From IMG/VR virus record IMGVR_UViG_3300010371_000035: 20,000 nucleotides of DNA. The stretch is one strand, 5' to 3'. The stretch comes from an uncultured virus (IMG/VR IMGVR_UViG_3300010371_000035) (taxonomy: Duplodnaviria > Heunggongvirae > Uroviricota > Caudoviricetes). The position numbers and the translations under genes are program-made. Position 1 is the first letter of the stretch, and every line of letters begins with the position of its first letter. Positions 1 through 20,000 of the stretch are shown piece after piece. The notes below the pieces were generated by a model that saw nothing but the letters and a program-made list of their open reading frames with translations, was not told where the DNA came from and did not search any database.

Positions 1-1
1 C

Positions 2-388
2 GACGACGCCGTTCAATACAAGGCGTTGCACTTCAGTCGCGTGCCGGTCAGCGTCAACGGCCTGAAGACGGCACTGGCAAATCAGCATCCAGTGGTCATC
101 GGCATCTCGGTCTACGACAGTTTCGAGTCCGATGAAGTCGCACGTACCGGGATGGTGCCGATGCCGGGTCCGAATGAGAGCATGATCGGCGGCCACTGCA
201 TGTACGTGATCGGCTATGGTCAGAAGCCCGATCATTTCACCGTCCGTAATTCCTGGGGCGATGACTGGGGTGACAAGGGGAACTGCTACATCCCGTTCAA
301 TTTCCTCGGGTCGCCGACCTACGGATCCGACTATTGGATCATCGACCTGTTCGGATCCGACGCCGAGCAGCAGGCTCATACGGCTTAA
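2..388 (+). CDS. Papain-like (C1 family) cysteine peptidase, C-terminal part; 5' end lies outside the window
   Basis: GGHCMYVIGY (catalytic His) and VRNSWGDDWGDKG (catalytic Asn) motifs; frame is open back to position 2. Confidence 0.9.
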   Translation, partial: DDAVQYKALHFSRVPVSVNGLKTALANQHPVVIGISVYDSFESDEVARTGMVPMPGPNESMIGGHCMYVIGYGQKPDHFTVRNSWGDDWGDKGNCYIPFNFLGSPTYGSDYWIIDLFGSDAEQQAHTA

Positions 389-403
389 CAGAAAGGAACA
401 GAA

Positions 404-733
404 ATGCGTTCACTTGCAGGATCTCTTCTCACCATCTTCGCCTTCTTCCTTGGCGGCTGCAATTCGCAGACCGGAGGTATCGACGTCAGCGCCGTGCAGG
501 CAGCTCTCAAGAGCGCATGCGGCGTGGAGTTGGCGGCCTCGACCGCGCTCACCGAGATCCAGGCTCTGACCGGCGAGATCCCGGGGCTGTCTACCGCTCA
601 GCAGGTTGCCGATCTGATCTGCAGCAGCATGCGGACCCAGATGGCGGGCAAGGCCGGTGCGCCGCGCGTTGGTGTCACTGAGACCGTCAATGTCCAGAAT
701 AAGGTTCTCGTCCACGTTCAGCGGGCGCAGTAA
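404..733 (+). CDS. Putative lipoprotein
   Basis: AAGGA RBS; hydrophobic N-terminus ending in lipobox-like FLGGC. Confidence 0.75.
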   Translation: MRSLAGSLLTIFAFFLGGCNSQTGGIDVSAVQAALKSACGVELAASTALTEIQALTGEIPGLSTAQQVADLICSSMRTQMAGKAGAPRVGVTETVNVQNKVLVHVQRAQ

Positions 734-773
734 TCAGCCAACCCCGGTGACATGCCTATATAGCCGGGAAACT

Positions 774-822
774 GAGGGGCTGCCACCACCTAAGAACCAG
801 CCCCTCGCATTTTCTCAAGGAG
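774..822 (+). promoter_or_regulatory. Hairpin / U-tract / RBS leader of the 829 gene
   Basis: GAGGGGCTG (774-782) pairs with CAGCCCCTC (798-806), followed by GCATTTTCTCAAGGAG. Confidence 0.55.
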
Positions 823-828
823 AAGAAC

Positions 829-1143
829 ATGGCCGATACGGAAAAGGATCCGGAAGAGTTCGCCACCACTGGCGACGAGCAGGAAGAAGGGACCGAGTCC
901 GAAACGATGGAACTTGCAAAGGGTCCGGAACCTCTGCCGCCCTTCGAGGGCTGGATGCCAGCCCCTCAGCTTGTCTGGTGCAGGGTACGCGCCGATGAAG
1001 ACGGCAAGGTCGTCGAAGTCAAGCTGGCTTCAGACTATGACGTCGTTCGGACACATCAGTACGACGAGAGCCATCCCGTCGTGTTGGTCAATCGCGAGAT
1101 GCCGGAGCATCTACAACAGCCGGAGGATCCGAAACGGGGATAG
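829..1143 (+). CDS. Acidic hypothetical protein
   Basis: AAGGAG RBS; 104 aa, E/D-rich N-terminus. Confidence 0.75.
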   Translation: MADTEKDPEEFATTGDEQEEGTESETMELAKGPEPLPPFEGWMPAPQLVWCRVRADEDGKVVEVKLASDYDVVRTHQYDESHPVVLVNREMPEHLQQPEDPKRG

Positions 1144-1429
1144 CTTGGGCCGGGGGAACTAGAGGGCCACGATCGTTCTCCCGGATCCATCCAGCGGCGC
1201 GCGCCAGCATCGTGATGTTCCACAGACGCCGACCGTCTGGCATCTCGGCCAGATAGTGCGATGTGAATAGAGTGCCGGTGTAGACGATGGTACCCAGGAC
1301 TCGGCCGCTTATCCTTTCCACGACCGACCATTGATCAGGCTGGTACTTCCGGGTCTTGCAGATACCGTCGTAGCGGATGAACGTCGGCTTCAGTTCGTTC
1401 GGCTGAACGAGCAGGCGTGGCTTTCTCAT
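1088..1429 (-). CDS. Hypothetical protein
   Basis: ATGA overlap with the upstream - gene; 3' end overlaps the convergent 829 gene by 56 nt. Confidence 0.65.
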   Translation of the reverse strand: MRKPRLLVQPNELKPTFIRYDGICKTRKYQPDQWSVVERISGRVLGTIVYTGTLFTSHYLAEMPDGRRLWNITMLARAAGWIRENDRGPLVPPAQAIPVSDPPAVVDAPASRD

Positions 1430-1728
1430 CGCTCTTCTCTCCCGTAATCGAATCTAGATAGGTAGACGATGCGAGTCTCTCGCCTGAGTTCAAGATCAGC
1501 CCGCAGTTTCGTCTCCTGCATCAACCCGCGATTGATATCATCGACGTAGTATTCATCATTGGTCGTCTTGGCGAACTCCAAGCTGGTGCCGCAGCCCCAG
1601 CAATGAGCGGCTTCCTTGATTAGGTTTTGCTTCCCGCACAAACAGACCCTAAGAACGAACCGACATTTTGGACTGTACCGCGACATTTCCATTCGGACAT
1701 GGACAATGTCGTTGACGTTGATGGGCAT
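1426..1728 (-). CDS. Small Cys-rich (zinc-ribbon-like) hypothetical protein
   Basis: AAGGAGGAG RBS before MPINVND at 1728; CLCG and CWGCG motifs. Confidence 0.75.
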   Translation of the reverse strand: MPINVNDIVHVRMEMSRYSPKCRFVLRVCLCGKQNLIKEAAHCWGCGTSLEFAKTTNDEYYVDDINRGLMQETKLRADLELRRETRIVYLSRFDYGREER

Positions 1729-1736
1729 GGTGTTCT

Positions 1737-1862
1737 CCTCCTTGTAGAAAAAGTGCTCCCCCGGCGCCTGCGAAAGGATGGCCCCCATTCGACCATCCCA
1801 CACCGGGGGAGCTAGACCGTGGTTCGGGTCACCTGCACAGGACAGGCTTCTATGCCACGGCC
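1737..1862 (-). promoter_or_regulatory. Structured intergenic RNA: two hairpins, U5 tract and RBS
   Basis: GCTCCCCCGG (1755-1764) pairs with CCGGGGGAGC (1803-1812), with inner GGATGG/CCATCC; second stem CCGTGG/CCACGG (1817-1860); G-U wobbles favour the - strand. Confidence 0.6.
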
Positions 1863-1868
1863 GTCTCG

Positions 1869-2645
1869 TTACCTACGCCAGTTGGGATGGCGGAAGTAAT
1901 CGCTCACATTATTGAGGCCGGGGTCGGAGGCATAGCCGGACGAGCCGCCAGCATTACCACTCCCACCAGAAGCGCCAGCAGAGCCGCCGCTTCCCGACCC
2001 GCTACTGCCACCGCCGCCCGAAGATGATCCGGATCCAGCCCCACCTGAGCCACCACCTCCGGATCCGCCACCCCCAGACGAGCCTGAACCGCCAGAACCT
2101 CCCGAGCCGGAACCACCAGAGCCTCCGCCAGATCCTCCAGAGCCTCCTGAGCCGCCTCCCGAGCCTCCGGACCCACCGCCCGATCCTCCGCCAGATCCGC
2201 CAGAACCCCCGCCAGACCCGCCGCCACTCCCACCGCCAGAACCACCACCGGACCCGCCGGACCCACCGCCGCCGCCAGATCCACCGCCACCACCGGACCC
2301 GCCTCCGCCAGAACCCCCACCGCCCCCGGAGCCGCCACCGCCACCAGATCCGCCACCGCCTGATCCACCACCACCAGAGCCACCACCTGAACCTCCACCG
2401 CCAGAGCCACTACCGCCGGAGCCACCGCCCCCGCCAGAACCACCTCCACCGCCGCCGGATCCGCCCCCGGAGCCACCGCCTCCGGAACCGCTGCCGCCAC
2501 CGGAACCTCCGCCACCGCCACTACCGGAACCTCCGGAGCCACCGCCTCCCCCACCACCATGCGCGGAAGCGCTGGCAACGGAGAGAAGACCGGCGGCTGT
2601 GCCGCTTAGGAGAAGTGCGAGAAACCTACGCTTGGTCGTTGTCAT
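1869..2645 (-). CDS. Secreted glycine/serine-rich low-complexity protein
   Basis: GGAG RBS before MTTTKRRFLALLL...ASA signal peptide; about 210 residues almost all G/S with varied synonymous codons; short unique C-terminus. Confidence 0.8.
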   Translation of the reverse strand: MTTTKRRFLALLLSGTAAGLLSVASASAHGGGGGGGSGGSGSGGGGGSGGGSGSGGGGSGGGSGGGGGGSGGGGGSGGSGSGGGGSGGGSGGGGSGGGGSGGGGGSGGGGGSGGGGSGGGGGSGGGGGSGGSGGGSGGGSGGGSGGGSGGSGGGSGGGSGGSGGGSGGSGGSGGGSGGSGSGGSGGSGSSGGGGSGGGGSGGAGSGSSSGGGGSSGSGSGGSAGASGGSGNAGGSSGYASDPGLNNVSDYFRHPNWRR

Positions 2646-2674
2646 GTTTTGCTCCAAACCTCATCTGGTTGATG

Positions 2675-3052
2675 TTAATATGCCACTCGGCCTCTGGAAT
2701 ATGGATGCCAGTCCCCAGCAACCACGTGACATCTCTCGTGATGGATAATGTCATCTCGCACCCAACCCCTCAGGTTTTCGTCGATCATGATGACCTTACC
2801 GCCCCACGTGAGCCCGTAGAGCCGCCCGTTGATATGACGCGCGGCTGCAAGTCGATCCATGTCGGCCCTGGAAACAGGGACGACCGGGATTTTGATGTAG
2901 CTTAAGTCTTTCTGGCAAGCCACAGGGTAGTGGTTTCCCAGAACATCTGTCGCCGCGTAGTAGTCCGGAGTGTTGCTGCAAGCGCTGAGCACTGCAGCAA
3001 GCCCTATGAATAGGATTTTCACGGCGACCATCCGAAGAGGATATTCGCCCAT
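2675..3052 (-). CDS. Lipoprotein with HEXXH motif (putative Zn metallopeptidase)
   Basis: AGGAG RBS before ATG 3052; lipobox LSAC; IIHHERCHVVAG. Confidence 0.75.
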   Translation of the reverse strand: MGEYPLRMVAVKILFIGLAAVLSACSNTPDYYAATDVLGNHYPVACQKDLSYIKIPVVPVSRADMDRLAAARHINGRLYGLTWGGKVIMIDENLRGWVRDDIIHHERCHVVAGDWHPYSRGRVAY

Positions 3053-3181
3053 AGCACTCCTGCGAACAGCAGAATCGCCAGTGTCGTTCCACAATGGAAC
3101 AAGGTATAGTCTCGCATAGCCAGCCTTACTCTCCCAATGCACCCTAACCGGGCATGCCTTAACTATGCCACAAGCAACAGG

Positions 3182-3204
3182 GGAACAATAGCTGAACTTT
3201 ACAG
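3182..3204 (+). promoter_or_regulatory. Conserved junction motif GGAACA-N5-TGAACTTTACAG (putative late promoter element)
   Basis: Same motif and spacing at 16061-16083; both lie immediately before the RBS of the first + gene of a block. Confidence 0.6.
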
Positions 3205-3214: not shown

Positions 3215-3412
3215 ATGTTCCGATATCGCCAAGTAGAGTTCGACAATGGAGCGACGGTGTTTCTAAGACCCCAAGACCATGACCGCCAGATAGGACTTCT
3301 ACTGCAGAAGATGACTACGGAAAATCTGGTGCTTGACATTACGGTCGAGAAGGCTGCCGCCTGGGACTATGCTGTGAATCTATATCACATGCCTGTGATG
3401 GGATCTGCTTAA
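3215..3412 (+). CDS. Hypothetical protein (65 aa)
   Basis: AGGAGG RBS before ATG 3215 (MFRYRQVEF). Confidence 0.7.
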   Translation: MFRYRQVEFDNGATVFLRPQDHDRQIGLLLQKMTTENLVLDITVEKAAAWDYAVNLYHMPVMGSA

Positions 3413-3428
3413 CACAGAAGGAGACAAA

Positions 3429-4577
3429 ATGGCACCTCCGTATAAGTTGATAGACGTTGCGACCGGTCAGGTCGTCCAGACCGATGGCCAGAGTTGGGAC
3501 AACATGGACACTCAGCCTGGGAATACGATCGAGGTCTATTCTGGAACCGTGACCGGCGGACCCAACGCTCGCATCAGCCCCGGCGAAATCATTCGTCCGC
3601 CCAACACCGACCCGGATCCCGGTCCAGGCCCCGATCCCACCCCGCCATCAGGAGCAGACATGGATTATCCTCTGAACGAGACCCAGCTTGCGCAGTTCCT
3701 CCAGAGCTATGCCAACAACGGCATCATCGGTCAGCTCGATCCTCGGACCAAGGTTACTGTGACCAAGACCATTACCATCAAGCAGAGCAACAACGGTGCA
3801 GGGAGCCCGTGGGGCGTTGATGGGAACGGCGCGAAGATCACGTGGGGTGGTGCTGCTGGACAAGACATGCTCCAATACGTCGGCGTTCAAGGCGTGAACA
3901 ATCGTGGCTTGACGGTCCGTGGGTTGTTCATGGACGGCAATGGATATGCCGGTGGAGCAGCCGGTGCTTGCCTCAAACTGTCCGCACCGCTGGGTGACAG
4001 CGGTCCGATCTACGAGTTCCTGATCGAGGACGTCTACACTGTCTATGCCACCAACGGACTCTTCCTCGAAGGCGGTGTCTACGAAGGCATGTGCCTCAAC
4101 GTGCATGCGCAGAACCACAATGCTGATGGAATCTTTATGCAGAACCTGTCCAATGGGGCAGTCGTCAGCAATGTGTCGCTCCTGCATCCGAACTGCTCGC
4201 GGAACTTCGGTGCCGGGATCCATTCGGTCTACTCCTGTGACATCAAGTTTGGTTCCTTCGTGCTGAATGCTCTAGGCGGCGTGGTGGCTCCAGCCGGTCT
4301 GCGGTCGGCCAGCCAGTGCAACGGCGAGAACACTGGCGAAGCGGTCTTCGTGGTCGGATCCAAGGGCGGATATGGCTGCGCTATCAGCTCTTGCGAAGCT
4401 TCTTCGGACGGCCAGACGGTCTGTCGCAAGTTCCAGAACGGTGTATGGGTGAGCCTCGGCAAGCCCGAGCTCTATCTGATCAACTGGAGCGACGGATCGG
4501 GTACGGGCACCGTTCAGCAGATGAACCATTGCTCCTACTATGGATCAGGGACCAATCCAATGCGAGTTGTGAAATGA
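3429..4577 (+). CDS. Right-handed beta-helix (pectin-lyase-fold) protein, possible polysaccharide depolymerase
   Basis: AAGGAG RBS; PDPGPGPDPTPP linker; beta-helix-like repeats (LTVRGLFMDGNG, NHNADGIFM, NFGAGI). Confidence 0.7.
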   Translation: MAPPYKLIDVATGQVVQTDGQSWDNMDTQPGNTIEVYSGTVTGGPNARISPGEIIRPPNTDPDPGPGPDPTPPSGADMDYPLNETQLAQFLQSYANNGIIGQLDPRTKVTVTKTITIKQSNNGAGSPWGVDGNGAKITWGGAAGQDMLQYVGVQGVNNRGLTVRGLFMDGNGYAGGAAGACLKLSAPLGDSGPIYEFLIEDVYTVYATNGLFLEGGVYEGMCLNVHAQNHNADGIFMQNLSNGAVVSNVSLLHPNCSRNFGAGIHSVYSCDIKFGSFVLNALGGVVAPAGLRSASQCNGENTGEAVFVVGSKGGYGCAISSCEASSDGQTVCRKFQNGVWVSLGKPELYLINWSDGSGTGTVQQMNHCSYYGSGTNPMRVVK

Positions 4578-5002
4578 AAATGGCTCGGAACGAAGCGCCG
4601 TATCCGGAGATTCTCCAAGAGCTCGTGAAACGGCTCAGCTATCGGAAGTGGCGCTTCACCCTCGGCCATATCGACCGCGGACAAGGTTCGGAAGGCTTGA
4701 CCTTGATCATCACCACGGTTGGATATGACAGCTACAACCCGGAAGATGGCGAGAACTACCGGGTGAATCACTACATGCCGGTACCTCCAGCGGCCTACAA
4801 CGAACAGAGCTGGCGGCGTTGGCTCTTCGAGCAATGTCTGCTCGTCGAGAGACACGAGTGCTGTGAGTTCTTCAAGATCGATGGGAAGCGGCCCTATGCT
4901 CCCCACCACGGACCGGGCAACGACCCCTATATCGTCTTCGAACGCGGAAGCGACGAAGAGGCTAGGACCATGTATACTGGTGAGGTCCGCCCAAAGACGT
5001 AA
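4574..5002 (+). CDS. Conserved phage hypothetical protein (HE..EFF...G.RP.APHH motif)
   Basis: ATGA overlap with the upstream gene; ERHECCEFFKIDGKRPYAPHH resembles a recurrent phage protein of unknown function. Confidence 0.75.
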   Translation: MKMARNEAPYPEILQELVKRLSYRKWRFTLGHIDRGQGSEGLTLIITTVGYDSYNPEDGENYRVNHYMPVPPAAYNEQSWRRWLFEQCLLVERHECCEFFKIDGKRPYAPHHGPGNDPYIVFERGSDEEARTMYTGEVRPKT

Positions 5003-5043
5003 CCCAGGAGGCGATCATGTAGTTCCAACAAAGGAGGCCAATC

Positions 5044-5346
5044 CTGTTTCAGTTTCTCATCCTGTTACGATACCTCAAGAACATCCTTGCAAAGGTGAAT
5101 AAAATGGCTGGTGAACTTCAGGCACTTCAGAACGAAGTGGCGAACAACAACTCCGTTACCCAGAGCGCGGTGACCCTCCTGCAGGGCCTCAAGGCGGCTC
5201 TCGATGCGGCGATTGCGTCCGGCGACATGTCCCAGGTCCAGGCGCTGTCTGATCAACTGGCGTCTCAGGATCAGGCGCTCGCCGCTGCGGTGACCGCGAA
5301 TACTCCGACCCCGCCGGAGCCCCCGGCTCCGCAGGGCCGTCGCTAG
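5044..5346 (+). CDS. Ala/Gln-rich coiled-coil phage protein; start uncertain (CTG 5044, GTG 5095 or ATG 5104)
   Basis: Heptad-like ELQALQNEV...ALAAAVTANTP; AAGGAGG lies 6 nt before the in-frame CTG. Confidence 0.75.
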   Translation: MFQFLILLRYLKNILAKVNKMAGELQALQNEVANNNSVTQSAVTLLQGLKAALDAAIASGDMSQVQALSDQLASQDQALAAAVTANTPTPPEPPAPQGRR

Positions 5347-5465
5347 TTCGATGAAGTGACGTAGGGGGAGGGGGCAGTGCTCCTTCCCTTTACGTTCGTC
5401 TTTAGAACGCAAAGCGATAGGAAGATCCCAATCGCCATGCCGAGTAGGAGCATCCGAAAAGGCAT
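5343..5465 (-). CDS. Small membrane peptide (40 aa)
   Basis: TGATG overlap with the upstream gene; hydrophobic MLLLGMAIGIFLSLCV; its tail runs through the hairpin, which lowers confidence. Confidence 0.45.
   Translation of the reverse strand: MPFRMLLLGMAIGIFLSLCVLKTNVKGRSTAPSPYVTSSN
5359..5395. terminator. Hairpin at convergent junction, probable terminator
   Basis: ACGTAGGGGGAGGGGGCA pairs with GCTCCTTCCCTTTACGT, just after the + gene stop. Confidence 0.55.
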
Positions 5466-5793: not shown

Positions 5794-6006
5794 GACCGGT
5801 CGCGCGATCACCCGGCTGAGGTTGGATCGCCACCGGCTCTCGTCTTTGGGGAAAACGAGCCTCACTGCAGGAACCTTCGGGGGTGGGACTGTCAGGGTCC
5901 CTGCAGCACGTTCTAAATTGATAAAAGAAAGACGGAGAGTGTAGCCTCCGTCTTGGGCGTATGTGTGACCGATCGCCCCCTTTAGTCATTGCGATCGACT
6001 CCGCCC
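5794..6006 (-). other. Non-coding array of five adjacent hairpins
   Basis: Stems at about 5794-5838, 5839-5859, 5865-5906, 5929-5954 and 5955-6006. Confidence 0.6.
5922..5954 (-). terminator. Intrinsic terminator
   Basis: On the - strand: AAGACGGAG-loop-CTCCGTCTT followed by TCTTTT. Confidence 0.7.
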
Positions 6007-6022
6007 TAGTTTACCCAGATGT

Positions 6023-6241
6023 TTACCGGCTGTCTTTCCGCAATTCGTTGTCGAGATGCGGCCAGACAGTAGCCTTGATCTCATTAGCGACCGAATTGAG
6101 AGCGTCGAGGAGAGCGATTGCGTCCTCTTCGAGATCCTCGTTCTTGGAATCGCAGTCTGCGCGATACTTGTTTATCTGCTCCTGCAATGCCACGGCCTTG
6201 CTGTAGACGTTCCAGAGTTCGCTCACGCGCATGGTGCTCAT
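6023..6241 (-). CDS. Hypothetical helical protein
   Basis: AGGAG RBS; 72 aa amphipathic helices. Confidence 0.75.
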   Translation of the reverse strand: MSTMRVSELWNVYSKAVALQEQINKYRADCDSKNEDLEEDAIALLDALNSVANEIKATVWPHLDNELRKDSR

Positions 6242-6251
6242 ATTCGATCTC

Positions 6252-6545
6252 CTATCGAACGCCGTGCTTGTTCTTCAGCATCTGCCGCCGATCAGCAATT
6301 TCGGCGGAGGTGCCAACGAAGTGGTCGCTGATGACGCCACCGATTCCTTTCGCGCTGGTCTGCAATATGATGTTCACATACCGGCGCGGCTCCGTTGGCC
6401 GTTCGCACACCGGACAGCCCTTCCCGTTATCCGAATGGGCGATCCCATGCAGCGTGCAGTAGGTCTTGCCACCGACTATCCGAGGAGCGATACTCCGTTC
6501 GCCCATCGTCAAGCGCGGCAGCTCTGCTTTGTCTGTCGATACCAT
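6252..6545 (-). CDS. Hypothetical protein with CxxH...CxxC zinc-finger-like motif
   Basis: AGGGGA RBS; CTLH and CPVC. Confidence 0.7.
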   Translation of the reverse strand: MVSTDKAELPRLTMGERSIAPRIVGGKTYCTLHGIAHSDNGKGCPVCERPTEPRRYVNIILQTSAKGIGGVISDHFVGTSAEIADRRQMLKNKHGVR

Positions 6546-6580
6546 TTCAGTCCCCTAAACGGTTTATAGAACAAACCCTA

Positions 6581-6622
6581 ACCGGGCAGCGCCAGTGTAG
6601 CCGGGCAAGTTACTGAATTATA
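6581..6622 (+). promoter_or_regulatory. Conserved junction motif ACCGGGCAGCG-N4-TGTA-N15-GAATTATA
   Basis: Same blocks at identical spacing at 10162-10203, upstream of the portal gene. Confidence 0.6.
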
Positions 6623-6642
6623 CATGAAAATAGGGTGATCCA

Positions 6643-8793: not shown

Positions 8794-9815
8794 TGGCCGC
8801 TATTGATTTCCCCGCCTCGCCGGGTGACGGCCAGTTATTCTCGGCTGCCAACGGCATGACCTACCAGTACAAGGCATCCCAGACACTCTGGGTGCCGCTG
8901 TCGGCAATTGGACAGACATTGGCCGTCCCTGCATTCCAGGCATTTATCAACAATGCAGTAGTCTGGGCAACAGGATCGATCACCAAGGTCACTAGTTTCT
9001 TGACGCCAACTGTGAATGTCGGTAACTATTGGGATTCAGTGAATAGCCGATGGATACCCCCTGCAGGAACCTATGTGATCAGCGGACAAGGGCAAATTTC
9101 TCCCGGCGCAACTGCTGGTCTTACGTTGTATCTGTACAAGAACGGAGTTCAATACGCACAGTCATGGGAAGTTTCCGCTGCTGCTGGCTATACTTCAAGT
9201 CCCAATTTTTCCGTTGTTGTCCAAGCCAATGGCACGGATTATTTCGAGCTCTGGGCAATAGCGAGTGGTGGGCAAACAATCAACACACTAGGTAGTTTCT
9301 TTTCTGCCTATGGCGTGACGTTGGCTATGGGCAACGGTGCTGGAGGAACGCCTACTGGTGTTCTTCAGATGGTCAATGGGAAGAGCGGTGCTTTTCAGAG
9401 TGTCACCGGCGCTGCTGCTATTCCTCAAGGTCAAACGACGCCTATGACAACTTCGCAAGGCGGGCAGATCTTCAGTACTAGCATCACACCCAAGAGCGCC
9501 TCGTCGAATTTGCTCATCGAAGCCTTGATCAACTACAGTCCAAGCGCTGGGGACGCCTTTACGGTTGGCTTGTTCCGCGATGCTGGGACCAATGCAATCG
9601 CTGAAGGATCCTGTGCCGGTTCTACAGGTACCAGCGTGTTTCAGCTTTCGTTGTCTGCTGTAATTCCCAGTAGCGCCGCAGCGGCTACGACCTTCAAGTT
9701 GCGCATGGGAGGCAACGGCGGGACCAGCTTTGCTGTCAATGGTATCTGGGGTGCTTCTCTGCCGACGGGTGGCGGAACAATGTTCTCCGGTATGACCATT
9801 ACTGAGATACTTTGA
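8793..9815 (+). CDS. Short fibre / receptor-binding protein with C1q-like domain
   Basis: TAATG overlap; N-terminal IDFPASP.DGQ motif; C1q-like PAFQA...P.AGTY...LYKNG...NGTDYFELW. Confidence 0.75.
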   Translation: MAAIDFPASPGDGQLFSAANGMTYQYKASQTLWVPLSAIGQTLAVPAFQAFINNAVVWATGSITKVTSFLTPTVNVGNYWDSVNSRWIPPAGTYVISGQGQISPGATAGLTLYLYKNGVQYAQSWEVSAAAGYTSSPNFSVVVQANGTDYFELWAIASGGQTINTLGSFFSAYGVTLAMGNGAGGTPTGVLQMVNGKSGAFQSVTGAAAIPQGQTTPMTTSQGGQIFSTSITPKSASSNLLIEALINYSPSAGDAFTVGLFRDAGTNAIAEGSCAGSTGTSVFQLSLSAVIPSSAAAATTFKLRMGGNGGTSFAVNGIWGASLPTGGGTMFSGMTITEIL

Positions 9816-9816
9816 C

Positions 9817-9852
9817 AAAGGAAAGGGCGGTCCTCCCGAACCGCCCTTCTTT
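9817..9852. terminator. Bidirectional intrinsic terminator
   Basis: AAGGGCGGT pairs with ACCGCCCTT, with A-rich and T-rich flanks, between convergent stops at 9815 and 9857. Confidence 0.85.
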
Positions 9853-9856
9853 GGAG

Positions 9857-10120: not shown

Positions 10121-10161
10121 TGTTTTATCCGCTTGGTTGGAGTACACTTGGCCCGGCTCGC

Positions 10162-10203
10162 ACCGGGCAGCGGTATTGTACCGCGCCATACCTGGGAATT
10201 ATA
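10162..10203 (+). promoter_or_regulatory. Second copy of ACCGGGCAGCG...TGTA...GAATTATA motif
   Basis: Matches 6581-6622; directly precedes the AGGAG RBS of the portal gene. Confidence 0.6.
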
Positions 10204-10215
10204 TAGGAGCTTACG

Positions 10216-13649: not shown

Positions 13650-13662
13650 TTGGAGCGAGTCT

Positions 13663-13914
13663 ATGGCACTTCAACCTTACAATGCGCGGGCTCTTGCCAA
13701 CTTCGGGCAAGTGACTGCTATCACGCCCAATGACTCTACGGTCTTGGGTTTCGGCGCACTCTACATCGGCGTATCGGGGGATATCGCTGTTATTCCGATT
13801 GGACAGACTACTTCGATTGTCTTCAAGAGCTGCCCGGTCGGTATTCTACCCGTAGGCGTATCGCGTGTCTTATCTACGGGGACGACAGCCTCACAGATCC
13901 TGGGGCTGAACTAG
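13663..13914 (+). CDS. Head spike base protein (RcGTA Rcc01079-like)
   Basis: 83 aa; AITPND.T...ALYIG..GDIAV...LPV.V.RV.STGTTA..I.GL signature; GGAG RBS. Confidence 0.85.
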   Translation: MALQPYNARALANFGQVTAITPNDSTVLGFGALYIGVSGDIAVIPIGQTTSIVFKSCPVGILPVGVSRVLSTGTTASQILGLN

Positions 13915-13928
13915 CACAGGAGGGGCTA

Positions 13929-14138
13929 TTGGGCCTAATCGAAGGAGTCATCTATGCGTTGATCTTCATCGCCGTCTTGGCGTTGGTGGTCTGGCTTGTG
14001 ATCTGGGTGCTGACGACCATCGTGGGCGTCGCGCTCCCAGCTAAAGTGATCCAGATCGTTTGGGTCATCTTCGCACTTGTGTGCATCCTTATCCTGTTGC
14101 GGATGGTGCTGCCCGCAGCCGGTGTTCATTTACCTTAG
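13929..14138 (+). CDS. Small two-TM membrane protein (possibly holin-like)
   Basis: AGGAGG RBS with TTG start; two long hydrophobic segments. Confidence 0.75.
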   Translation: MGLIEGVIYALIFIAVLALVVWLVIWVLTTIVGVALPAKVIQIVWVIFALVCILILLRMVLPAAGVHLP

Positions 14139-14155
14139 CAGCAATGGAGTGAATC

Positions 14156-14485
14156 ATGCCCGAGGCAAAGAAGCCTGAAAACAAGGAGCCCAAAGAAGCA
14201 GCCAAGGACCCATCGGAGCTTGAAGATCGGGCGCTGGCCGCTGCTTCCGATCGTGAGAACAAGGAATCTCCGGCGGACCATACTGACGTGGACCGCGCGG
14301 CGGTTGGCGTCACTTGGAGGCAGCACGAGACCCATACGTTCGATGAATGGGCGGCCATCGATCCGGCCGTGGGCGGGCACGCCGCTGACTTCCATGCCCG
14401 CTTCGGCTCCCGAGCTCATCAGCTCATGGACCATGATACCCTCGAACTGCGTCTCGAGGAACTGATCCCGCGGCGTCGAGTCTGA
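14156..14485 (+). CDS. Hypothetical protein
   Basis: GGAG RBS; 109 aa charged protein ending just before a terminator. Confidence 0.75.
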   Translation: MPEAKKPENKEPKEAAKDPSELEDRALAAASDRENKESPADHTDVDRAAVGVTWRQHETHTFDEWAAIDPAVGGHAADFHARFGSRAHQLMDHDTLELRLEELIPRRRV

Positions 14486-14489
14486 AGTG

Positions 14490-14518
14490 AGGGGCGGCGC
14501 AAGCCGCCCTTCCCCTTT
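14490..14518. terminator. Intrinsic terminator at convergent junction
   Basis: GGGCGGC-GCAA-GCCGCCC followed by TTCCCTTT. Confidence 0.8.
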
Positions 14519-15124
14519 CTATCGAAGAAACTCCAGCTGATTGTAGTACATCCCCATATCTTCATCGAAGAGGCCGACTTGCTCTAGCAACCCCTGAGCG
14601 CTCATGTGCTCTGCCCCTTCTACTTGCTTGCCGTAGCTCCAGTGCTCTACATAGTCCCAGCGGTTGGCTAGGACATACAACATATCTCGCCATCGGCACA
14701 TCCGATAACCATTGGTACGCATCAACATCTGTGTCGGCGAACGCTCCTTGGCTGTTCCAGGGATGTGCCCGGCATAGAATATGGTGTCGTCGTCATACTT
14801 CTTACGGTACTTCATGTCGCTGTTCGACAGGAACGGACAAACCCTAAGAGAATAACGCGCGCACTCTTCGTGCATGGCAAGGTCCGAGAACAGACGATTC
14901 TTTGCTGCCGCGTGACCGCCAATGAACCATTTCTTGTTATCGAGACGCTTGCCGCAGATCATGCAGAGGCGCTTGAGCATGCACTCGGCCTGTTTCTCCA
15001 TGTCGATATGAATCTGCGTGTCCATCATGAGATAGGGGATTGGATAGCCGCGCTTGTCCCGTCGTATGCCGAGCATGCGCCGAGGCAGCGGGACATCCTT
15101 AATTGCTTGATGTGCATCAGCCAT
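14519..15124 (-). CDS. Conserved phage hypothetical protein with Cys/His metal-binding motifs
   Basis: RGYPIPY, LCMICGKRL, WFIGG and MHEECARYSLRVCPFL; GAGGAAGG RBS. Confidence 0.8.
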   Translation of the reverse strand: MADAHQAIKDVPLPRRMLGIRRDKRGYPIPYLMMDTQIHIDMEKQAECMLKRLCMICGKRLDNKKWFIGGHAAAKNRLFSDLAMHEECARYSLRVCPFLSNSDMKYRKKYDDDTIFYAGHIPGTAKERSPTQMLMRTNGYRMCRWRDMLYVLANRWDYVEHWSYGKQVEGAEHMSAQGLLEQVGLFDEDMGMYYNQLEFLR

Positions 15125-15284
15125 TGCCTTCCTCCGATAGAAGCCTAGCCAATTCCATCTCGACTTCGGCGGCGTCCAGATCTGGATCTTGCCGGTCTTC
15201 GAGTACCTCTTGGACGGCCTGTTCTAGTTTCTGCGCCGAGACACGACGCTGGCGGACACGACTACTCTTCTTAGGCTTGGTCAT
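15117..15284 (-). CDS. Small hypothetical protein (55 aa; not in ORF track)
   Basis: MTKPKKSSRVRQRR...LARLLSEEGNG; ATGA overlap upstream and 8-nt overlap downstream. Confidence 0.65.
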   Translation of the reverse strand: MTKPKKSSRVRQRRVSAQKLEQAVQEVLEDRQDPDLDAAEVEMELARLLSEEGNG

Positions 15285-15478
15285 GGATTTGCATATCCTT
15301 GTGCAAGTTCATTAGCAATCTCTACAGCCTTCAGGTGATGAACACCGAGATCGAGTAGTTTGTCGATGGCGAGAGTATAGACGCAGTCTGCTATTTCATC
15401 GGGGCTTGCATCTTCAGTCCAATCTGCATTGGCTTCGATGTTTCCCCGGGCTGCTTCCCGTAGTTCGTCGTCTGTCAT
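15281..15478 (-). CDS. Hypothetical acidic protein (65 aa)
   Basis: GAGGT RBS before MTDDELREAA; ATGA overlap. Confidence 0.7.
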   Translation of the reverse strand: MTDDELREAARGNIEANADWTEDASPDEIADCVYTLAIDKLLDLGVHHLKAVEIANELAQGYANP

Positions 15479-15624
15479 GGGTACCTCAGATGTAGGCGAA
15501 CGAGATTGAGAACATAGAAGGTCATGAGCACGATTCTTAGCCAGCCAGGAGTGCTCATCAGATCGAAGCCGAAACTGGTTGCCATGGATGCAAGCCACAT
15601 CCAGATAAAGAGCCGGACGTTCAT
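15475..15624 (-). CDS. Small two-TM membrane protein (49 aa; not in ORF track)
   Basis: MNVRLFIWMWLAS...LVRLHLRYP; ATGA overlaps at both ends. Confidence 0.65.
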   Translation of the reverse strand: MNVRLFIWMWLASMATSFGFDLMSTPGWLRIVLMTFYVLNLVRLHLRYP

Positions 15625-16010
15625 CGGCTTAACCTTATGGAATAGGATGGTGGCGTTCCCTCGATCTTCGTCGTGTACGCCAAGCTGTCGTGGAACGATT
15701 GGAACCGTAGATCCATGACGTTCTCAACGATGATCTCGTGATAGCCGTGGCGCTGCCCAACTTCCATCAACCAGCCTAGGAAGAACGTGTAGCGTTGCCC
15801 GCTCGTCTTCCTGAACGTGAACGTGATGTTGGCGAGATCGATGCGCCGCCAGTTGTTGTGCTCCATTTTCCGCAGATAGATTTCTGCGATAGGATTATTG
15901 AACCATCGCCGATCATTGACTTGATGCTCTTTAAAAGGAGTACCAAGCCATTCTTCTATATGGTCTAGGATCGAACCTAGTTCGTCACGCACGCTCTGTG
16001 TTACCATCAT
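15621..16010 (-). CDS. Hypothetical protein, possibly a degenerate GNAT fold
   Basis: AGGAG RBS; IDLANITF....SG..YT.FL..L...IIVENV...RF pattern. Confidence 0.65.
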   Translation of the reverse strand: MMVTQSVRDELGSILDHIEEWLGTPFKEHQVNDRRWFNNPIAEIYLRKMEHNNWRRIDLANITFTFRKTSGQRYTFFLGWLMEVGQRHGYHEIIVENVMDLRFQSFHDSLAYTTKIEGTPPSYSIRLSR

Positions 16011-16060
16011 CGACTCCTATTGCCGTTACCCGGCCCCACTAGGGTAGCCCGCCGGGCTGT

Positions 16061-16083
16061 GGAACACCACGTGAACTTTACAG
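16061..16083 (+). promoter_or_regulatory. Second copy of GGAACA-N5-TGAACTTTACAG
   Basis: Matches 3182-3204; precedes the head gene block. Confidence 0.6.
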
Positions 16084-16090: not shown

Positions 16091-16402
16091 ATGCCGCAAA
16101 TCAGAACGCCCACATATTCCTTGCCAAAGAAGCCGATGGCCGCACCAGCTTCTGTGGTTGTTCTCGGCGGCGAGCCTGTCGTTGTAATGACTGGGCCGGT
16201 CCGAGGAGGTTACATACAGAATCCCACAGGGGCAGGCGAAGTCTTGTTGGTCGATATGGTCAACACGCCCGGATGGGATCATCCAACAACATTCAGGCTG
16301 GCCGCCGGAGAGACGTTTACAGTTCCATTCCTACAGCCGGGAATACAGATCAAGGCTACGGCTGAAACCTCAGGTCACAAATTCGTGGCAGTAATCTGGT
16401 GA
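16091..16402 (+). CDS. Hypothetical beta-rich protein, probably virion-associated
   Basis: GAGGG RBS; first gene of the head block. Confidence 0.7.
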   Translation: MPQIRTPTYSLPKKPMAAPASVVVLGGEPVVVMTGPVRGGYIQNPTGAGEVLLVDMVNTPGWDHPTTFRLAAGETFTVPFLQPGIQIKATAETSGHKFVAVIW

Positions 16403-16415
16403 AAGGAGAAGTCCA

Positions 16416-16844
16416 ATGCCGCTCACCGGCGATCCCAAGAAGGACATTCCGGAACTGATGAAATCTGGCCGACCGCAGAAGCAAGCGGTCGCCATCGCTC
16501 TGAAAGAGAAGCGCGGAGACGACGACTGCGACGAAGACATAGTTGCAGACGACGACGATCGATCCAGCGAAGGGCATGCGCGTGAAGCCGCTCGTCTCAA
16601 GGATCTTGCCGAACGTGAAAAGGACCCGGCCAAGAAAAAGAAGCTCCAGGAGCAAGCCGAGTTCCACGGAAAAGAAGTTGGCATCGCCGATGCCAAGAAA
16701 GACGAAGTCGAAGACCTGAGCCTTCTCAAGCTGGTGGAGCGTATTAGGCATGATATGCAGGCCAACCAGGAGGCTATCGACAGGCTTGCGGGGAAGAGTT
16801 ATACTATCAGCTCTAGGATAAGGAGGATTGAAGAACAACAATGA
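16416..16844 (+). CDS. Head-region protein with MPL...GRPQKQAVAIAL motif
   Basis: AAGGAG RBS; motif recurrent in head modules of DUF2213-type phages. Confidence 0.75.
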   Translation: MPLTGDPKKDIPELMKSGRPQKQAVAIALKEKRGDDDCDEDIVADDDDRSSEGHAREAARLKDLAEREKDPAKKKKLQEQAEFHGKEVGIADAKKDEVEDLSLLKLVERIRHDMQANQEAIDRLAGKSYTISSRIRRIEEQQ

Positions 16845-18883
16845 TCTGCGCTGCGGGTGTTCTTATTTGCAGCACTCAAGGCCGGGTCCTGCTACTTCAG
16901 AGATCTGAAGCCGGGGACATGCCCGGTCTATGGTGTATTCCAGGCGGTAAATGTGAATCAGGAGAAAGTACTCTTGAAGCCGCCATTCGTGAAACAGTCG
17001 AAGAGACAGGGTATAAGCCGCCCAAGACTCGTTGCGAGAAATGGGCTCAGCGGGTAGCGTGTGACAACGGTATCGATCCTGTTGACTTCACAACTTATTG
17101 CATCAAGGACGTCGAGGAGTTTACGCCGACACTGAATCCAGAGCATGTGGCCTTCTGCTGGTGCGATCCAGCCAAGCCACCGCAAGGCATGCATCCAGGT
17201 TGCCTTGTGGCTCTGCAGAAGCTGTCACCGACTTGGAATGAACTTCACGTTGCCAAGGCGGTTCGTGATGGACAGCTTGTGTCCCCGCAACGGTACGAGA
17301 ACATTACGTTCTTCGACATGCGGGTGACAGGTACGGGCGAAGCCTTCCGTTCCATGAAAAGGGACGACAAAGGCGATGTTCTGTACGAAGAAGAGTATGT
17401 GTGGCGTGATCCGAAGATGTACCTGAATCCTGAGTTTCTGGAACGTTGCAATGGCGTCCCAGTCATTCTTGAACATCCCGATACTTCTATCCTAAATACG
17501 GAGGAATACCGCACAAGGACCATCGGTGCGTTGACGTTGCCCTACATCAAAGGAGAAGATGTCTGGGCGATTGCCCGCGTGCAAGACGATGCGGCTGCGA
17601 AGATCATGTCGGAGGAACAGCTTTCAACCTCCCCAGCCGTTTCCTGGAGCGACCCCGACGCCAACATTGCCGGGAAGCTGAAGGACGGGTCCAATTTTCT
17701 GATTGAAGGCAACCCCACTTTGCTAGATCATCTCGCCGTTTGCTGGCAGGGGGTTTGGGATAAAGACGGCGGACCGACAGGTATCAACATTGTCAGGAGT
17801 GACAGTATGGACAAAGCAGACCTCGACAAGCTGATCGCTCAGAACGAGACGATCACCAAGGCGCTGGCCGGTATCGGAACCGGCTTCGAGACGCTCAACA
17901 AGCGTCTGGACAGCGTCGAGACCAACTTTGCGACTCATCGCAAGGAGGTCATCCAGACTCGTATCGACAGCTTCAAGTTCTCGAAGCGCAAGGACAAGGA
18001 GTCCGAGCGTTCCTATCAGTCCCGTCATGACGACGAAGAGAAGGTTCTCCGCGCCGACATCATGAAGATCTCGACTGGCGAGGACGCGCGCGAGAAGGCG
18101 AGCGACGCCGCCCGCAAGGCGCGACGTGATGCCGAGGAGAAGGAAGAGGAGGAGCGTCGCGACGCCAAGGCTGACGAGTCCAAAGCCGACGAGTCCAAGA
18201 AGGACGAGAAGGAAGAGGACAAGGAAGCCAAGAAGGATGCGATGCCGCCTCAGTTCAAGAAGGACGAGGACGACAAGCGCAAGGACGAGGACGAGCGCGA
18301 CGACGCCAAGCGCAAGGACGAAGACGACAAGGACAAGAAGGCCGATGAGATGAAGGCCGACGAGTCCAAGAAGGACGAGCGCAAGGACGACGATCGCAAG
18401 GACGGACGTTCGGACAGCGTCGAGGAGCTCAAGAGGCAGGTCGCCATGATCCATGCAGGCATGAAGCCTCTGTCGGACGAGGACCTTGTCAAGGCAGGCA
18501 AGCTGTCCAAACGTGCCGACTCCATCTATACGGCGCTTGGCAAGTCCGTGCCCCGGCTGATGCCCGGCGAGAGCTTGGTGGACTACCACCGCAAGCTGGC
18601 GGCGGATCTCAAGCAACACACGAAGTACAAGGACTCGGAGCTTGCGGTCATCGCCGCGGATTCCGCGACCTTTGACATCGTGACCGAGGATATCTTCCGT
18701 CAGGCGGAAGAATTCGCAATGTCCCCGGCACGCTACAAGCCCGGCGAGATGGTCCAGCGCGTGGAGCGCATGGACAGCGGACACACGCGCTATACCTATG
18801 AAGGCACCGCGTCGTGGATGCGCCAGTTCGCTGGTCCCGTCCAGAACCACTGCAAGCGTTTCCTCACGAAGGAGGACAAGTAA
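16841..18883 (+). CDS. NUDIX hydrolase + DUF2213 (putative prohead protease) + charged scaffold fusion
   Basis: Nudix box GGKCESGESTLEAAIRETVEETG; DUF2213-like FLERCNGVPVILEHP, LSTSPAV and LLDHLAVC..GVWDK; K/D/E-rich C-terminal half. Confidence 0.85.
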   Translation: MICAAGVLICSTQGRVLLLQRSEAGDMPGLWCIPGGKCESGESTLEAAIRETVEETGYKPPKTRCEKWAQRVACDNGIDPVDFTTYCIKDVEEFTPTLNPEHVAFCWCDPAKPPQGMHPGCLVALQKLSPTWNELHVAKAVRDGQLVSPQRYENITFFDMRVTGTGEAFRSMKRDDKGDVLYEEEYVWRDPKMYLNPEFLERCNGVPVILEHPDTSILNTEEYRTRTIGALTLPYIKGEDVWAIARVQDDAAAKIMSEEQLSTSPAVSWSDPDANIAGKLKDGSNFLIEGNPTLLDHLAVCWQGVWDKDGGPTGINIVRSDSMDKADLDKLIAQNETITKALAGIGTGFETLNKRLDSVETNFATHRKEVIQTRIDSFKFSKRKDKESERSYQSRHDDEEKVLRADIMKISTGEDAREKASDAARKARRDAEEKEEEERRDAKADESKADESKKDEKEEDKEAKKDAMPPQFKKDEDDKRKDEDERDDAKRKDEDDKDKKADEMKADESKKDERKDDDRKDGRSDSVEELKRQVAMIHAGMKPLSDEDLVKAGKLSKRADSIYTALGKSVPRLMPGESLVDYHRKLAADLKQHTKYKDSELAVIAADSATFDIVTEDIFRQAEEFAMSPARYKPGEMVQRVERMDSGHTRYTYEGTASWMRQFAGPVQNHCKRFLTKEDK

Positions 18884-18885
18884 CT

Positions 18886-19776
18886 ATGGTCGCTACTCTC
18901 AACTACAACCCGTATCTGGTGACCTACGCCAACAACGGAATGTTCGGCGTCCACTCGATGGGCCTGAAGCAGGGCACCGCCTACCCGGATCCTGCGATCC
19001 GGAATCAGCTTCGCGGCGGCTGGCTCTCTGCTTCTGACACCCTCCCCATGTGGGGCGGTGTCGGCATCTACATGCAGGTCCCCGGTGCGGCGGGCAATCC
19101 GAACGTGGCGTTCCAGACCCAGATGGGTCGGGCAACGTCCATTGCTGGCGGCTCCAAGCCGCTCCTTGGGTTCTCGGTGTTCGACCAGAACTACAGCATG
19201 GTTACGACTCCGGGCAATACGGTTCCTATCGCCGTCGCCAATCAGTCCGTCCACGCTTATGCGCTGGGTAGCCGGGCTCGCATTGCCGTCCAATGCGATC
19301 CTCTGCTCATCGGACTGGCGGGCACGCCGATTAACTCCCAGGTAGCGTGGGATCTGCAGAACCAGATCCTGGTCCCGTACATCGCCGCGGCGCTCACCGC
19401 CTCGTCGGGGACCTACAACAGCACCACTGGTCTGATCACGCTGACCATGTCGGCTCCGATCACGTTCAGCCCCGGTGCTTCTGTGGTGACCTCGGCGCTG
19501 ACCGGCACCGGCGCGTTCGCCAGTCTCAATGGAACCTGGACCAGCGTTTCTCCCAGCACCGGGACCACGCTGACCCTCCAGGGCCCGGTCGGCGCGGGCG
19601 CGGCCACCATTACCGGCGGCACCGTGACTCCGTCTTCGGGCGTCGGCGCAAGCTCTGCGATCGCCGTCGATATCCTGGAAGTCCAGACGACCAACTGCAT
19701 CACCGTCGCCTGGGATCCCATCAACCTCGTCGCCAACTGGAACTTCAACGGCTGCTGCGCCGTGATCCAGATCTGA
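18886..19776 (+). CDS. Head decoration/cement-like structural protein
   Basis: GGAGG RBS before ATG 18886; QGTA.PDPA.R..L.GG...TLPMWGGVGI motif; lies between scaffold and capsid genes. Confidence 0.75.
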   Translation: MVATLNYNPYLVTYANNGMFGVHSMGLKQGTAYPDPAIRNQLRGGWLSASDTLPMWGGVGIYMQVPGAAGNPNVAFQTQMGRATSIAGGSKPLLGFSVFDQNYSMVTTPGNTVPIAVANQSVHAYALGSRARIAVQCDPLLIGLAGTPINSQVAWDLQNQILVPYIAAALTASSGTYNSTTGLITLTMSAPITFSPGASVVTSALTGTGAFASLNGTWTSVSPSTGTTLTLQGPVGAGAATITGGTVTPSSGVGASSAIAVDILEVQTTNCITVAWDPINLVANWNFNGCCAVIQI

Positions 19777-19791
19777 AGGAGATACTGAACC

Positions 19792-20000
19792 ATGGCACTC
19801 GAAGCCTCTGCGTTTCTGACCCTCAACCCGGCTTATCACGAGCCGGAGTTCCTGGTGCAGATCAATCAGTCGTCGGCGTTCATCGATCTGCTGGAGGGTG
19901 AAACCCTGCGCAATCGGCTGGCAACCGATGACCTCTTGGTCTACATGAAGACCCTGAACATGCGCGGCAAGATCGCCGCCGGATCGAGCGCGTTCAACGA
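19792..20000 (+). CDS. Probable major capsid protein, N-terminal part (runs off the window)
   Basis: AAGGAG RBS; MALEASAFLTLNPAYHEPEFLVQINQSS...DDLLVYMK; position after protease/scaffold and decoration genes. Confidence 0.7.
   Translation, partial: MALEASAFLTLNPAYHEPEFLVQINQSSAFIDLLEGETLRNRLATDDLLVYMKTLNMRGKIAAGSSAFN

Follow-up and report, generated by a model that had tools for sequence, protein, structure and literature searches.

Gene order in the window

Why are the late genes of a tailed phage interrupted again and again by small genes that run backward, and which of the two sets of genes is served by the sequence that recurs where they diverge? These questions are raised by a stretch of 20,000 nucleotides (the window; IMG/VR record IMGVR_UViG_3300010371_000035) that stems from an uncultured tailed phage of soil or rhizosphere and covers part of its genome, the whole of which is suggested by CheckV-type estimates for relatives to measure ∼75 kb. 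An earlier note on this sequence had described plus-strand virion gene blocks alternating with antisense accessory cassettes, and had taken the motifs shared by the divergent junctions for control regions of separately regulated, possibly shuffled units. The results presented below indicate that the shared motif is a ∼75-nt element that heads the backward cassettes and probably acts as their promoter.

Genes were called with a codon-usage model trained on the long open reading frames (ORFs) of the window and its relatives. In the resulting strand map, plus genes occupy positions 2-1143, 3215-5346, 6643-9815, 10216-14485 and 16091 onward, and minus genes 1088-3052, the region up to 6545, 9857-10120 (or 10189) and 14519-16010. 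This reproduces the alternation listed previously; the listed minus ORF 5343-5663 is doubtful, because it contains a plus-strand hairpin (5359-5395) and the model favours 5465-5650. A contig overlapping the window (L214), 100% identical to its positions 1-2294, extends the sequence by 10.1 kb upstream, and together the two make 30 kb visible. The order over this region is terS-terL, cassette, lysis genes, cassette, plus block, cassette, plus block, cassette, portal and spikes, cassette, head genes. The late plus genes thus form at least six blocks; the backward cassettes that separate them number at least five and hold one to four small genes each. TerS and TerL are encoded on L214, ∼18 kb upstream of the portal gene. 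The label "virion genes", which had been given to all plus blocks, is too narrow. Block 1 belongs to a lysis block, because the full peptidase gene comes after a GH19 endolysin gene on L214, and the terminase block lies another 10 kb upstream.

The contig is metagenomic and several minus ORFs score low in the codon model (4-9), which might point to an artefact, be it a chimeric assembly, invertible segments caught in one orientation, or shadow ORFs. None of the phage records searched is nearly identical to the window. An IMG/VR fragment (G001/L005) equals positions 4896-20000, two further IMG/VR contigs from other samples are also identical in the portal region, and at least half of the sampled words of positions 9000-18000 are present in 10 DNA runs from soil and rhizosphere. 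DNA run X7 is independent and carries no flag as a possible source; its contigs cover all 30 bins evenly at a depth of 3-6. They bridge positions 946-1876, 2516-6682, 9285-10890 and 14012-16057, i.e. nearly all points at which the strand switches. The uneven coverage and breaks by which a misassembly had been expected to betray itself were looked for, and coverage was found to be even; misassembly is very unlikely because independent contigs cross the junctions. Invertible segments were rejected as well, since inverted repeats are absent from the flanks of the cassettes and the elements all repeat in direct orientation. As judged from their sequences the minus ORFs are real genes, because one of them (the 201-aa ORF of cassette D) has 65 homologues, two more are conserved and two others encode signal peptides. 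In addition, the alternation is present in diverged relatives (see below). An artefact is therefore highly improbable.

A conserved element at the head of the backward cassettes

All four divergent junctions contain a ∼75-nt element that is present nowhere else in the window. When both strands were scanned with the pattern ACC[CG]GGC-N9-[GC]TA, four matches were obtained, all on the plus strand (positions 3147, 6581, 10162 and 16028); the presence of motifs at all four divergent junctions, noticed previously, is borne out with exactly one match per junction. A profile was built from ten copies, including the four of the window, which as training copies it scores at E values of 1e-7 to 4e-11. 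It detects 16 copies in the clade: four in the window, one on L214, and three, one and seven in the related sequences G2, L213 and G3r, respectively. Six of these copies were new finds of the profile (E 2.6e-9 to 2.5e-3), and no match at E ≤ 0.01 was obtained in the non-clade loci among the 212 loci (2.9 Mb) searched.

All 16 copies have the same orientation, each being located directly upstream of a minus gene whose ribosome-binding site and ATG come within 30-60 nt after the hairpin of the element (109 nt in one case). Five copies are located between two minus genes and have no adjoining plus gene. In the phage of the window, all five cassette heads carry the promoter-like element. Because of this fixed orientation, and of the copies lying between minus genes, we assign the element to the backward cassettes.

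The fine structure was deduced from 14 tabulated copies, read on the minus strand (those of the window are detailed in Table 1). A -10-like hexamer, mostly TAC..T, has A at its second and T at its sixth position in all 14 copies, and is directly preceded by TGn in nine of them (counted on the printed rows). Each of the 14 copies has a T-G-rich or TATAAT-type hexamer 16-17 nt upstream of this hexamer, reading TATAAT in three of them, and an A/T box (TGTAAAnTTC) is located ∼12 nt further up. On the other side, a GC hairpin begins 5-8 nt after the -10-like hexamer. The mean folding energy of the hairpins is -11.4 kcal/mol (n = 14) versus -6.6 (standard deviation 3.4) for 3000 random 34-nt windows, and none of 20000 resampled means of 14 reached the value of the element. 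The sequence of the stems varies across copies with pairing retained, and most copies have no T-run past the hairpin. On the strength of these sequence features we consider it probable that the element constitutes a minus-strand promoter with a 5'-terminal stem-loop leader.

Other readings of the boxes were dropped. On the aligned copies, inspected by eye, neither the -12 GC and spacings of a sigma-54 promoter (GG-N10-GC) nor the spacings of an extracytoplasmic function-type promoter (GGAAC) are kept, and a sigma-70 promoter on the plus strand was rejected for lack of a conserved hexamer pair.

A separate observation concerns positions 740-800 (plus strand), between two plus genes, where a sequence like part of the junction element is found (CCCCGGTGACATGCCTATATAGCCGGG). 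It was not scored by the profile and may be a decayed copy.

The model put forward in the earlier note assigns a different role to the element, namely that of a true divergent control region. Spelled out, the element would hold, in addition to the minus promoter or in its place, a late promoter that restarts each plus block, lacks a sigma-70-like consensus and is recognised by a phage-encoded activator or sigma factor. The ribosome-binding site of the plus gene is indeed located only 0-30 nt past the element at all five cassette heads of this phage, and the junctions are too short to accommodate another promoter (16011-16090 is 80 nt). Moreover, because the plus-strand terminators described below (5359-5395, 9818-9854 and 14489-14512) would stop transcription coming from upstream, the next plus block needs a new start or antitermination. 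On the plus strand, however, the element has no -35/-10-like pair conserved at fixed spacing, and 5 of the 16 copies have no plus gene to serve. A conserved plus-strand promoter-like feature was found neither in the element nor upstream of the other plus blocks. The longer upstream regions of those blocks share no motif either: outside the element the search returned two 8-mers, each in 3 of 11 regions and neither informative. With 16 of 16 copies facing a minus gene, a junction motif that serves the late block is not borne out as it had been stated, and we regard this model as unlikely.

Hairpins at the convergent junctions

Terminator hairpins had been reported at three convergent junctions, and folding tested against shuffled sequences indeed detected them at three of the four. 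The hairpin after block 2 (5359-5395) is strand-specific: an 81-nt window has a folding energy of -40.3 kcal/mol (z -3.06) on the plus strand versus -24.6 (z +0.40) on the minus strand, and none of 200 shuffles folds equally well. The hairpin at 9818-9854 is preceded by an A-run and followed by a T-run. At the remaining junction (1088-1143), where the ORFs overlap by 56 nt, no hairpin was detected (z -0.45). With respect to the ends of the cassettes themselves, cassette C has the bidirectional hairpin, and cassette B has a terminator-like hairpin on the minus strand (5954-5929) after its two secure genes; the ORFs to the left of these genes (5465-5865) are uncertain. The hairpin next to cassette D has no minus-strand T-run, and cassette A has no hairpin.

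Layout and element in related phages

The alternation recurs in two lineages whose portals are 76-78% identical to that of the window (G2/L213 and G3r/L007/L009); in G3r the portal gene stands by itself, with a backward cassette on either side. The interval from portal to capsid gene holds four minus ORFs in the window and five in L009, whereas 36 of 44 distinct relatives with 37-49% portal identity have no minus gene there, seven have one and one has two. When present in the distant relatives, the minus gene invariably occupies one and the same hot spot, which precedes the NUDIX/DUF2213 gene. The comparison of synteny proposed in the earlier note thus identifies the alternation, at the level of sequence, as a trait of the clade. 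In this clade the terminase genes are separated from the portal gene by 8-18 kb that include backward cassettes.

Homologues in G2 or G3r were found for two of the 13 minus ORFs of the window versus nine of the 19 plus ORFs. These counts are lower bounds because the contigs of the relatives are partial. By this comparison, the content of the cassettes turns over quickly. One of the two conserved minus ORFs, 6252-6545, has a homologue in G2 (1e-16), and the other, 9857-10120, has homologues in both G2 and G3r (3e-15 and 2e-6, respectively); these homologues have kept the upstream element and are found in other genomic contexts. Plus blocks have moved too. In the window, the genes for the head-spike fibre and its small partner come after the portal gene; G2 has them between terminase and portal, and G3r has them upstream of the terminase. 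The shuffling of modules that had been suspected is therefore seen as one head-spike module in three places in three lineages. As for the proposal that the genome is built of repeated units, the part that concerns late blocks alternating with backward accessory cassettes holds and extends to the relatives, and the part that makes the motif a control region of the late blocks is not borne out as stated.

These distributions also bear on the possibility that the cassettes are ordinary morons, in which case the plus genes would be expressed as one or a few long late transcripts by antitermination, as in lambdoid phages, and the element would be a moron promoter with no role in shuffling. The nearest cultured phages have co-oriented late modules, single backward genes occur at the portal-to-DUF2213 hot spot of distant relatives (8 of 44 have any), and no plus promoter was found, all of which this explanation would accommodate. 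It fits less well with the number of copies of one and the same element, since 16 copies, some of them before single genes inside cassettes, exceed what independent capture of morons would give. It does not explain why plus blocks themselves have moved, and no antiterminator gene was seen in the 30 kb available. We consider that the cassettes could be ordinary morons, but that this is not the likely explanation.

Some further observations were made on the relatives. In L007 (∼2900-4270; G3r 8900-10280), downstream of the terminase block, there is a 1.3-kb non-coding stretch that combines a microsatellite array of the GACACA type with the palindrome TGCGAC-N5-GTCGCA, which recurs ∼15 times at a spacing of 20-25 nt. 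The stretch resembles an origin, an iteron, an operator or a site of the parS type. A possible counterpart may be present on L214, where short direct repeats (GATTCAGC / GATTCTGTCG units, including two 46-nt copies) are located just downstream of the terminase gene (4767-4939) and are followed by ∼1.1 kb without a called gene (5507-6659). A backward cassette of L007 encodes a pentapeptide-repeat protein (5471-6190, minus strand; Pfam 7.5e-16). The pentapeptide-repeat fold is often a DNA mimic, and the protein is a candidate for an anti-defence or anti-gyrase function. Finally, the large terminase of the clade has 713-765 aa (L145 1429-3588, L146 13246-15543, L214 2424-4565), with a C-terminus ∼250-300 residues longer than that of the ∼425-460-aa terminases of more distant relatives; the matched part stops near residue 510-520.

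Proposed role of the element

We propose that the ancestors of these phages had one co-oriented terminase-portal-head-tail operon, and that in the clade backward cassettes of small, fast-changing genes, at least five in number, came to divide its plus-strand late genes into six or more blocks. The clade-specific element would head every cassette and, in relatives, also many single genes within cassettes, its parts being, in minus-sense order, A/T box, T-G-rich hexamer, 16-17-nt spacer, extended -10-like TGn-TAC(N2)T, hairpin, ribosome-binding site and ATG. The hairpin, 5-8 nt past the -10-like box, would lie at the expected start of the transcript. RNA polymerase would use the element to transcribe the cassette independently of late transcription, conceivably early or during lysogeny. 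The 5'-terminal hairpin would probably stabilise or insulate the cassette mRNA, and the two programmes would be kept separate by the terminator hairpins with which most blocks end. The repeated element may in addition serve as a homology patch for recombination, in the manner of the promoter-early stem-loop (PeSL) elements discussed below; we propose this role because units of element plus gene, as well as plus blocks, sit in different places in relatives. As a whole, cassettes headed by a minus-strand promoter element that break up the late operon are the best explanation that we can offer, and a fairly probable one. It predicts four minus-strand start sites (near 3155, 6587, 10168 and 16034), each with a 5' hairpin. 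A more far-reaching version is doubtful. In this version a clade unrelated to T4 independently evolved a portable element of promoter plus 5' hairpin, which spread with small genes, broke the late operon into six or more blocks and moved cassettes and virion modules by homology, the head-on backward transcription serving as a device for timing or insulation.

Pieces 100% identical to the window are present in three metatranscriptome runs, in both plus and minus genes. They include 13804-14398 (in all three runs), 17334-18558, 4879-5237 and others in plus genes, and 1514-1727, 6147-6401 and 9899-10144 in cassettes A, B and C, respectively. Parts without RNA coverage (e.g. 14675-16008 in three RNA runs) are not to be taken as evidence of silence.

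Several observations weigh against the proposed role. A generic sigma-70 scan found 8 sites where 8.4 were expected, none of them in the four elements. By the standards of E. coli the elements would be weak promoters. The hexamers at the -35 position are poor, and because four copies (W2, W3, L7c and the one on L214) read TATAAT or TATAGT there, another register is suggested. The preference of the hairpin for the minus sense is modest, its fold being slightly better in that sense in 10 of 14 copies, equal in one and worse in three. A cassette head in G2 (∼L006 880-960) has no recognisable element. The RNA pieces come from unstranded Logan contigs that carry neither start nor level, and may reflect DNA carry-over. 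One such contig runs into adapter at 10144, just past the hairpin and ∼24 nt downstream from the predicted start; processing of the transcript, a stop of reverse transcription or chance could each account for this. That recombination takes place at the element is deduced from only three to four lineages.

Gene content of blocks and cassettes

The features of the window are listed in Table 1. In block 3, two fibre-like proteins without a PHROG match are presumed to be tail fibre or receptor-binding proteins. In block 4, the genes for the spike base and the spike-fibre domain protein are adjacent, and both products score above the NCBIfam cutoffs. The long ORF of block 5 (16841-18883) encodes a NUDIX hydrolase domain N-terminal to a DUF2213-like head protein, in which the DUF2213 match (PF09979) is below the gathering score (16.9 bits versus a cutoff of 22), and its product has a Lys/Asp/Glu-rich repeat region at 18147-18408. 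Homologues of this protein come after the portal in relatives; the fusion is also present in cultured relatives, whose annotations call it a NUDIX hydrolase or a glycosyl transferase. The complete capsid gene of relative L009 matches PF09950 and phrog_6671. Searches of the window for tRNA genes and Rfam families returned none.

No family match was obtained for the minus ORFs of the window in PHROG, Pfam, NCBIfam and defence scans; sub-threshold matches (a sigma-factor model at 17 bits versus a cutoff of 276, Dsr1 at E 0.0017 and Cas8g at E 0.0088) were discarded as noise. The 201-aa protein of cassette D has its 65 homologues (E ≤ 1e-3) mostly in viral contigs, including phage contigs of 35-125 kb, with the invariant motifs RDxRGYPxP, CxxCG, WFxGG and H..C..Y...VCPFL. 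Close homologues are present in contigs of 68-77 kb, and the family is widespread among phages. No Pfam, PDB or PADLOC match was found for the protein, and its Atlas neighbours have no family. In cassette A, the Gly/Ser-rich protein has 262 aa, ∼200 of which are almost pure Gly/Ser repeats encoded by DNA of 66% GC with a strong C skew; this repeat region differs among independent contigs, with loose ends and inserted letters at ∼2005-2340 in run X7. Together with the lipoprotein and the Cys/His-rich protein, this putatively secreted protein is a candidate for host take-over or exclusion functions.

Table 1. Blocks, cassettes, genes, elements and hairpins of the window (two dots, extent of a block, cassette, element or hairpin; strand ".", both strands)
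Feature	Position	Strand	Details
Plus block 1, end of lysis-type block	2..1143	+	codon scores 17-31
Papain-like C1 peptidase, C-terminal part	2-388	+	Pfam Peptidase_C1 2.5e-10
Block 1 unknown ORFs	404-733, 829-1143	+	codon model
Minus cassette A	1088..3052	-	codon scores positive
Cassette A ORF	1088-1429	-	
Cassette A Cys-rich, zinc-ribbon-like ORF	1426-1803	-	by eye from translation
Cassette A Gly/Ser-rich protein, RRF twin-arginine-type (Tat) signal	1869-2657	-	signal read by eye
Cassette A protein with lipoprotein-type signal ending LSAC	2675-3052	-	signal read by eye
Element W1	3139..3203	-	hairpin ~3139-3157, -10-like hexamer 3162-3167, 17-nt spacer, -35-position hexamer 3185-3190, A/T box 3193-3203
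Plus block 2	3215..5346	+	codon model, PHROG match
Block 2 conserved small protein	3215-3412	+	
Block 2 probable right-handed beta-helix, depolymerase-like protein	3429-4577	+	Atlas lead only, scores 0.93-0.95, low feature counts
Block 2 phrog_1540 protein	4574-5002	+	
Block 2 last ORF	5095-5346	+	
Terminator-like hairpin after block 2	5359..5395	+	17-pair stem with G-U pairs
Minus cassette B	5929..6545	-	secure ORFs 6252-6545 and 6023-6241
Element W2	6575..6634	-	hairpin 6575-6587, -10-like hexamer 6594-6599, 17-nt spacer, hexamer 6617-6622 (TATAAT on the minus strand), degenerate A/T box up to 6634
Plus block 3	6643..9815	+	two fibre-like proteins
716-aa Gly-rich fibre-like protein	6643-8793	+	codon score 141
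340-aa protein, weak Pgp3 C-terminal (TNF-like) match	8793-9815	+	PF05475 1.3e-4, below cutoff; codon score 34
Bidirectional terminator-like hairpin, block 3/cassette C	9818..9854	.	z -2.30 on +, -2.96 on -
Minus cassette C, single small gene	9857..10120	-	
Element W3	10151..10216	-	hairpin 10151-10168, -10-like hexamer 10175-10180, 17-nt spacer, hexamer 10198-10203, degenerate box up to 10216
Plus block 4, portal and head spikes	10216..14485	+	
Portal	10216-11784	+	PF06381 4e-14, 52.5 bits vs cutoff 33.8; phrog_146 8e-50
Head-spike fibre-like protein with SPRY domain, 621 aa	11784-13649	+	NF048003 3e-23, 83.3 vs 36 bits
Spike base protein	13663-13914	+	NF048002 1.7e-14, 53.9 vs 28 bits
Block 4 further ORFs	13929-14138, 14156-14485	+	
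Intrinsic-terminator-like hairpin after block 4	14489..14512	+	10 pairs, 8 GC, T-rich tail, z -3.60
Minus cassette D	14519..16010	-	codon model
Cassette D 201-aa Cys/His-rich phage protein family, function unknown	14519-15124	-	conserved
Cassette D other ORFs	15117-15284, 15281-15598, 15621-16010	-	
Element W4	16022..16082	-	hairpin 16022-16034, -10-like hexamer 16041-16046, 17-nt spacer, hexamer 16064-16069, A/T box 16072-16082
Plus block 5, head morphogenesis	16091..20000	+	
Block 5 first ORFs	16091-16402, 16416-16844	+	
NUDIX and DUF2213-like fusion	16841-18883	+	phrog_6216 2.9e-127
phrog_6268 protein	18886-19776	+	
Major capsid protein, start of gene	19792 onward	+	

Comparison with known systems

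The layout of the window is a variant of one known from T4-like phages and from morons. It offers a natural comparison between forty-four relatives with a textbook co-oriented head module and one soil clade in which this module has been opened at many points. Terminase, portal and head genes are accordingly less bound to one order, and to lying side by side, than is usually assumed. The results further suggest that outside the T4 group, too, the shuffling of modules may be driven by short repeats with a regulatory function, and the element could mark slots for accessory genes in uncultured phages.

The closest cultured phages with a homologous set of head genes are Shewanella phage vB_Sb_QDWS, Pantoea phage PdC23, Klebsiella phage vB_Kpn_Chronis and the Yersinia vB_YenM phages, with portals 42-45% identical, NUDIX/DUF2213-like proteins ∼40% identical, the phrog_6268 protein and the capsid protein. 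In QDWS the order terS-terL-portal-x-NUDIX/DUF2213-capsid-tail is contiguous and co-oriented, whereas that of the clade is split by backward cassettes.

The head spikes resemble those of RcGTA, which consist of a base (Rcc01079) and a fibre (Rcc01080) whose N-terminal (I/L)-G repeat binds the base pentamer (Bardy et al. 2020, PMC7296036). The products of 13663-13914 and 11784-13649 match the models for spike base and spike fibre above cutoffs. The (I/L)-G repeat is absent from the first 100 residues of the phage fibre, which differs also in its 621 aa with SPRY and other domains, and the source is a phage and not a gene transfer agent (GTA).

In T4, early/middle and late genes lie on opposite strands in interleaved clusters. 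The window is similar in that clusters of virion genes alternate with small non-essential genes on the opposite strand; scale and lineage differ.

The moron was reportedly first defined by Juhala/Hendrix. Like a moron, an independent transcription unit in a late operon (Cumby et al. 2012, PMC3594210), a cassette would consist of promoter, gene(s) and terminator between late genes, is absent from close relatives, and includes genes of the secreted or surface type often found in morons, here those for the Tat-signal Gly/Ser-rich protein and the lipoprotein. Absence from syntenic relatives is seen in the 36 of 44 that have no minus gene from portal to capsid. The difference is that multi-gene cassettes are found at at least five sites within 30 kb with one common promoter-leader element.

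The PeSL cassettes of the T4-type phages RB49/phi1, PST and nt-1 are described as repeated motifs of promoter plus stem-loop that accompany orphan genes and mediate shuffling (Arbiol et al. 2010, PMC2839356; Comeau et al. 2014, PMC4122927). As far as these descriptions go, the element shares with them a short repeated composite motif of promoter-like boxes, A/T-rich upstream region and G/C stem-loop, a position before small orphan genes clustered between conserved core blocks, and the occurrence of gene-plus-motif units at differing places in related phages. It differs in belonging to an unrelated lineage, with a DUF1073-type portal and an HK97-like head, akin to temperate Shewanella, Pantoea and Klebsiella myoviruses. 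Its hairpin is located downstream of the -10-like box, at the predicted start, whereas the stem-loop of the PeSL is described as an upstream terminator. Its match to sigma-70 is weak, unlike the consensus-like PeSL promoters, a distinction drawn from the published description. Moreover, the cassettes run antisense to the late genes on either side of them, and they also interrupt the terminase-portal-head order. Because lineage, strength of the consensus, position of the hairpin and the antisense cassettes differ, we do not place the element in the PeSL family and file it, by analogy, as one that would work like a PeSL or moron system.

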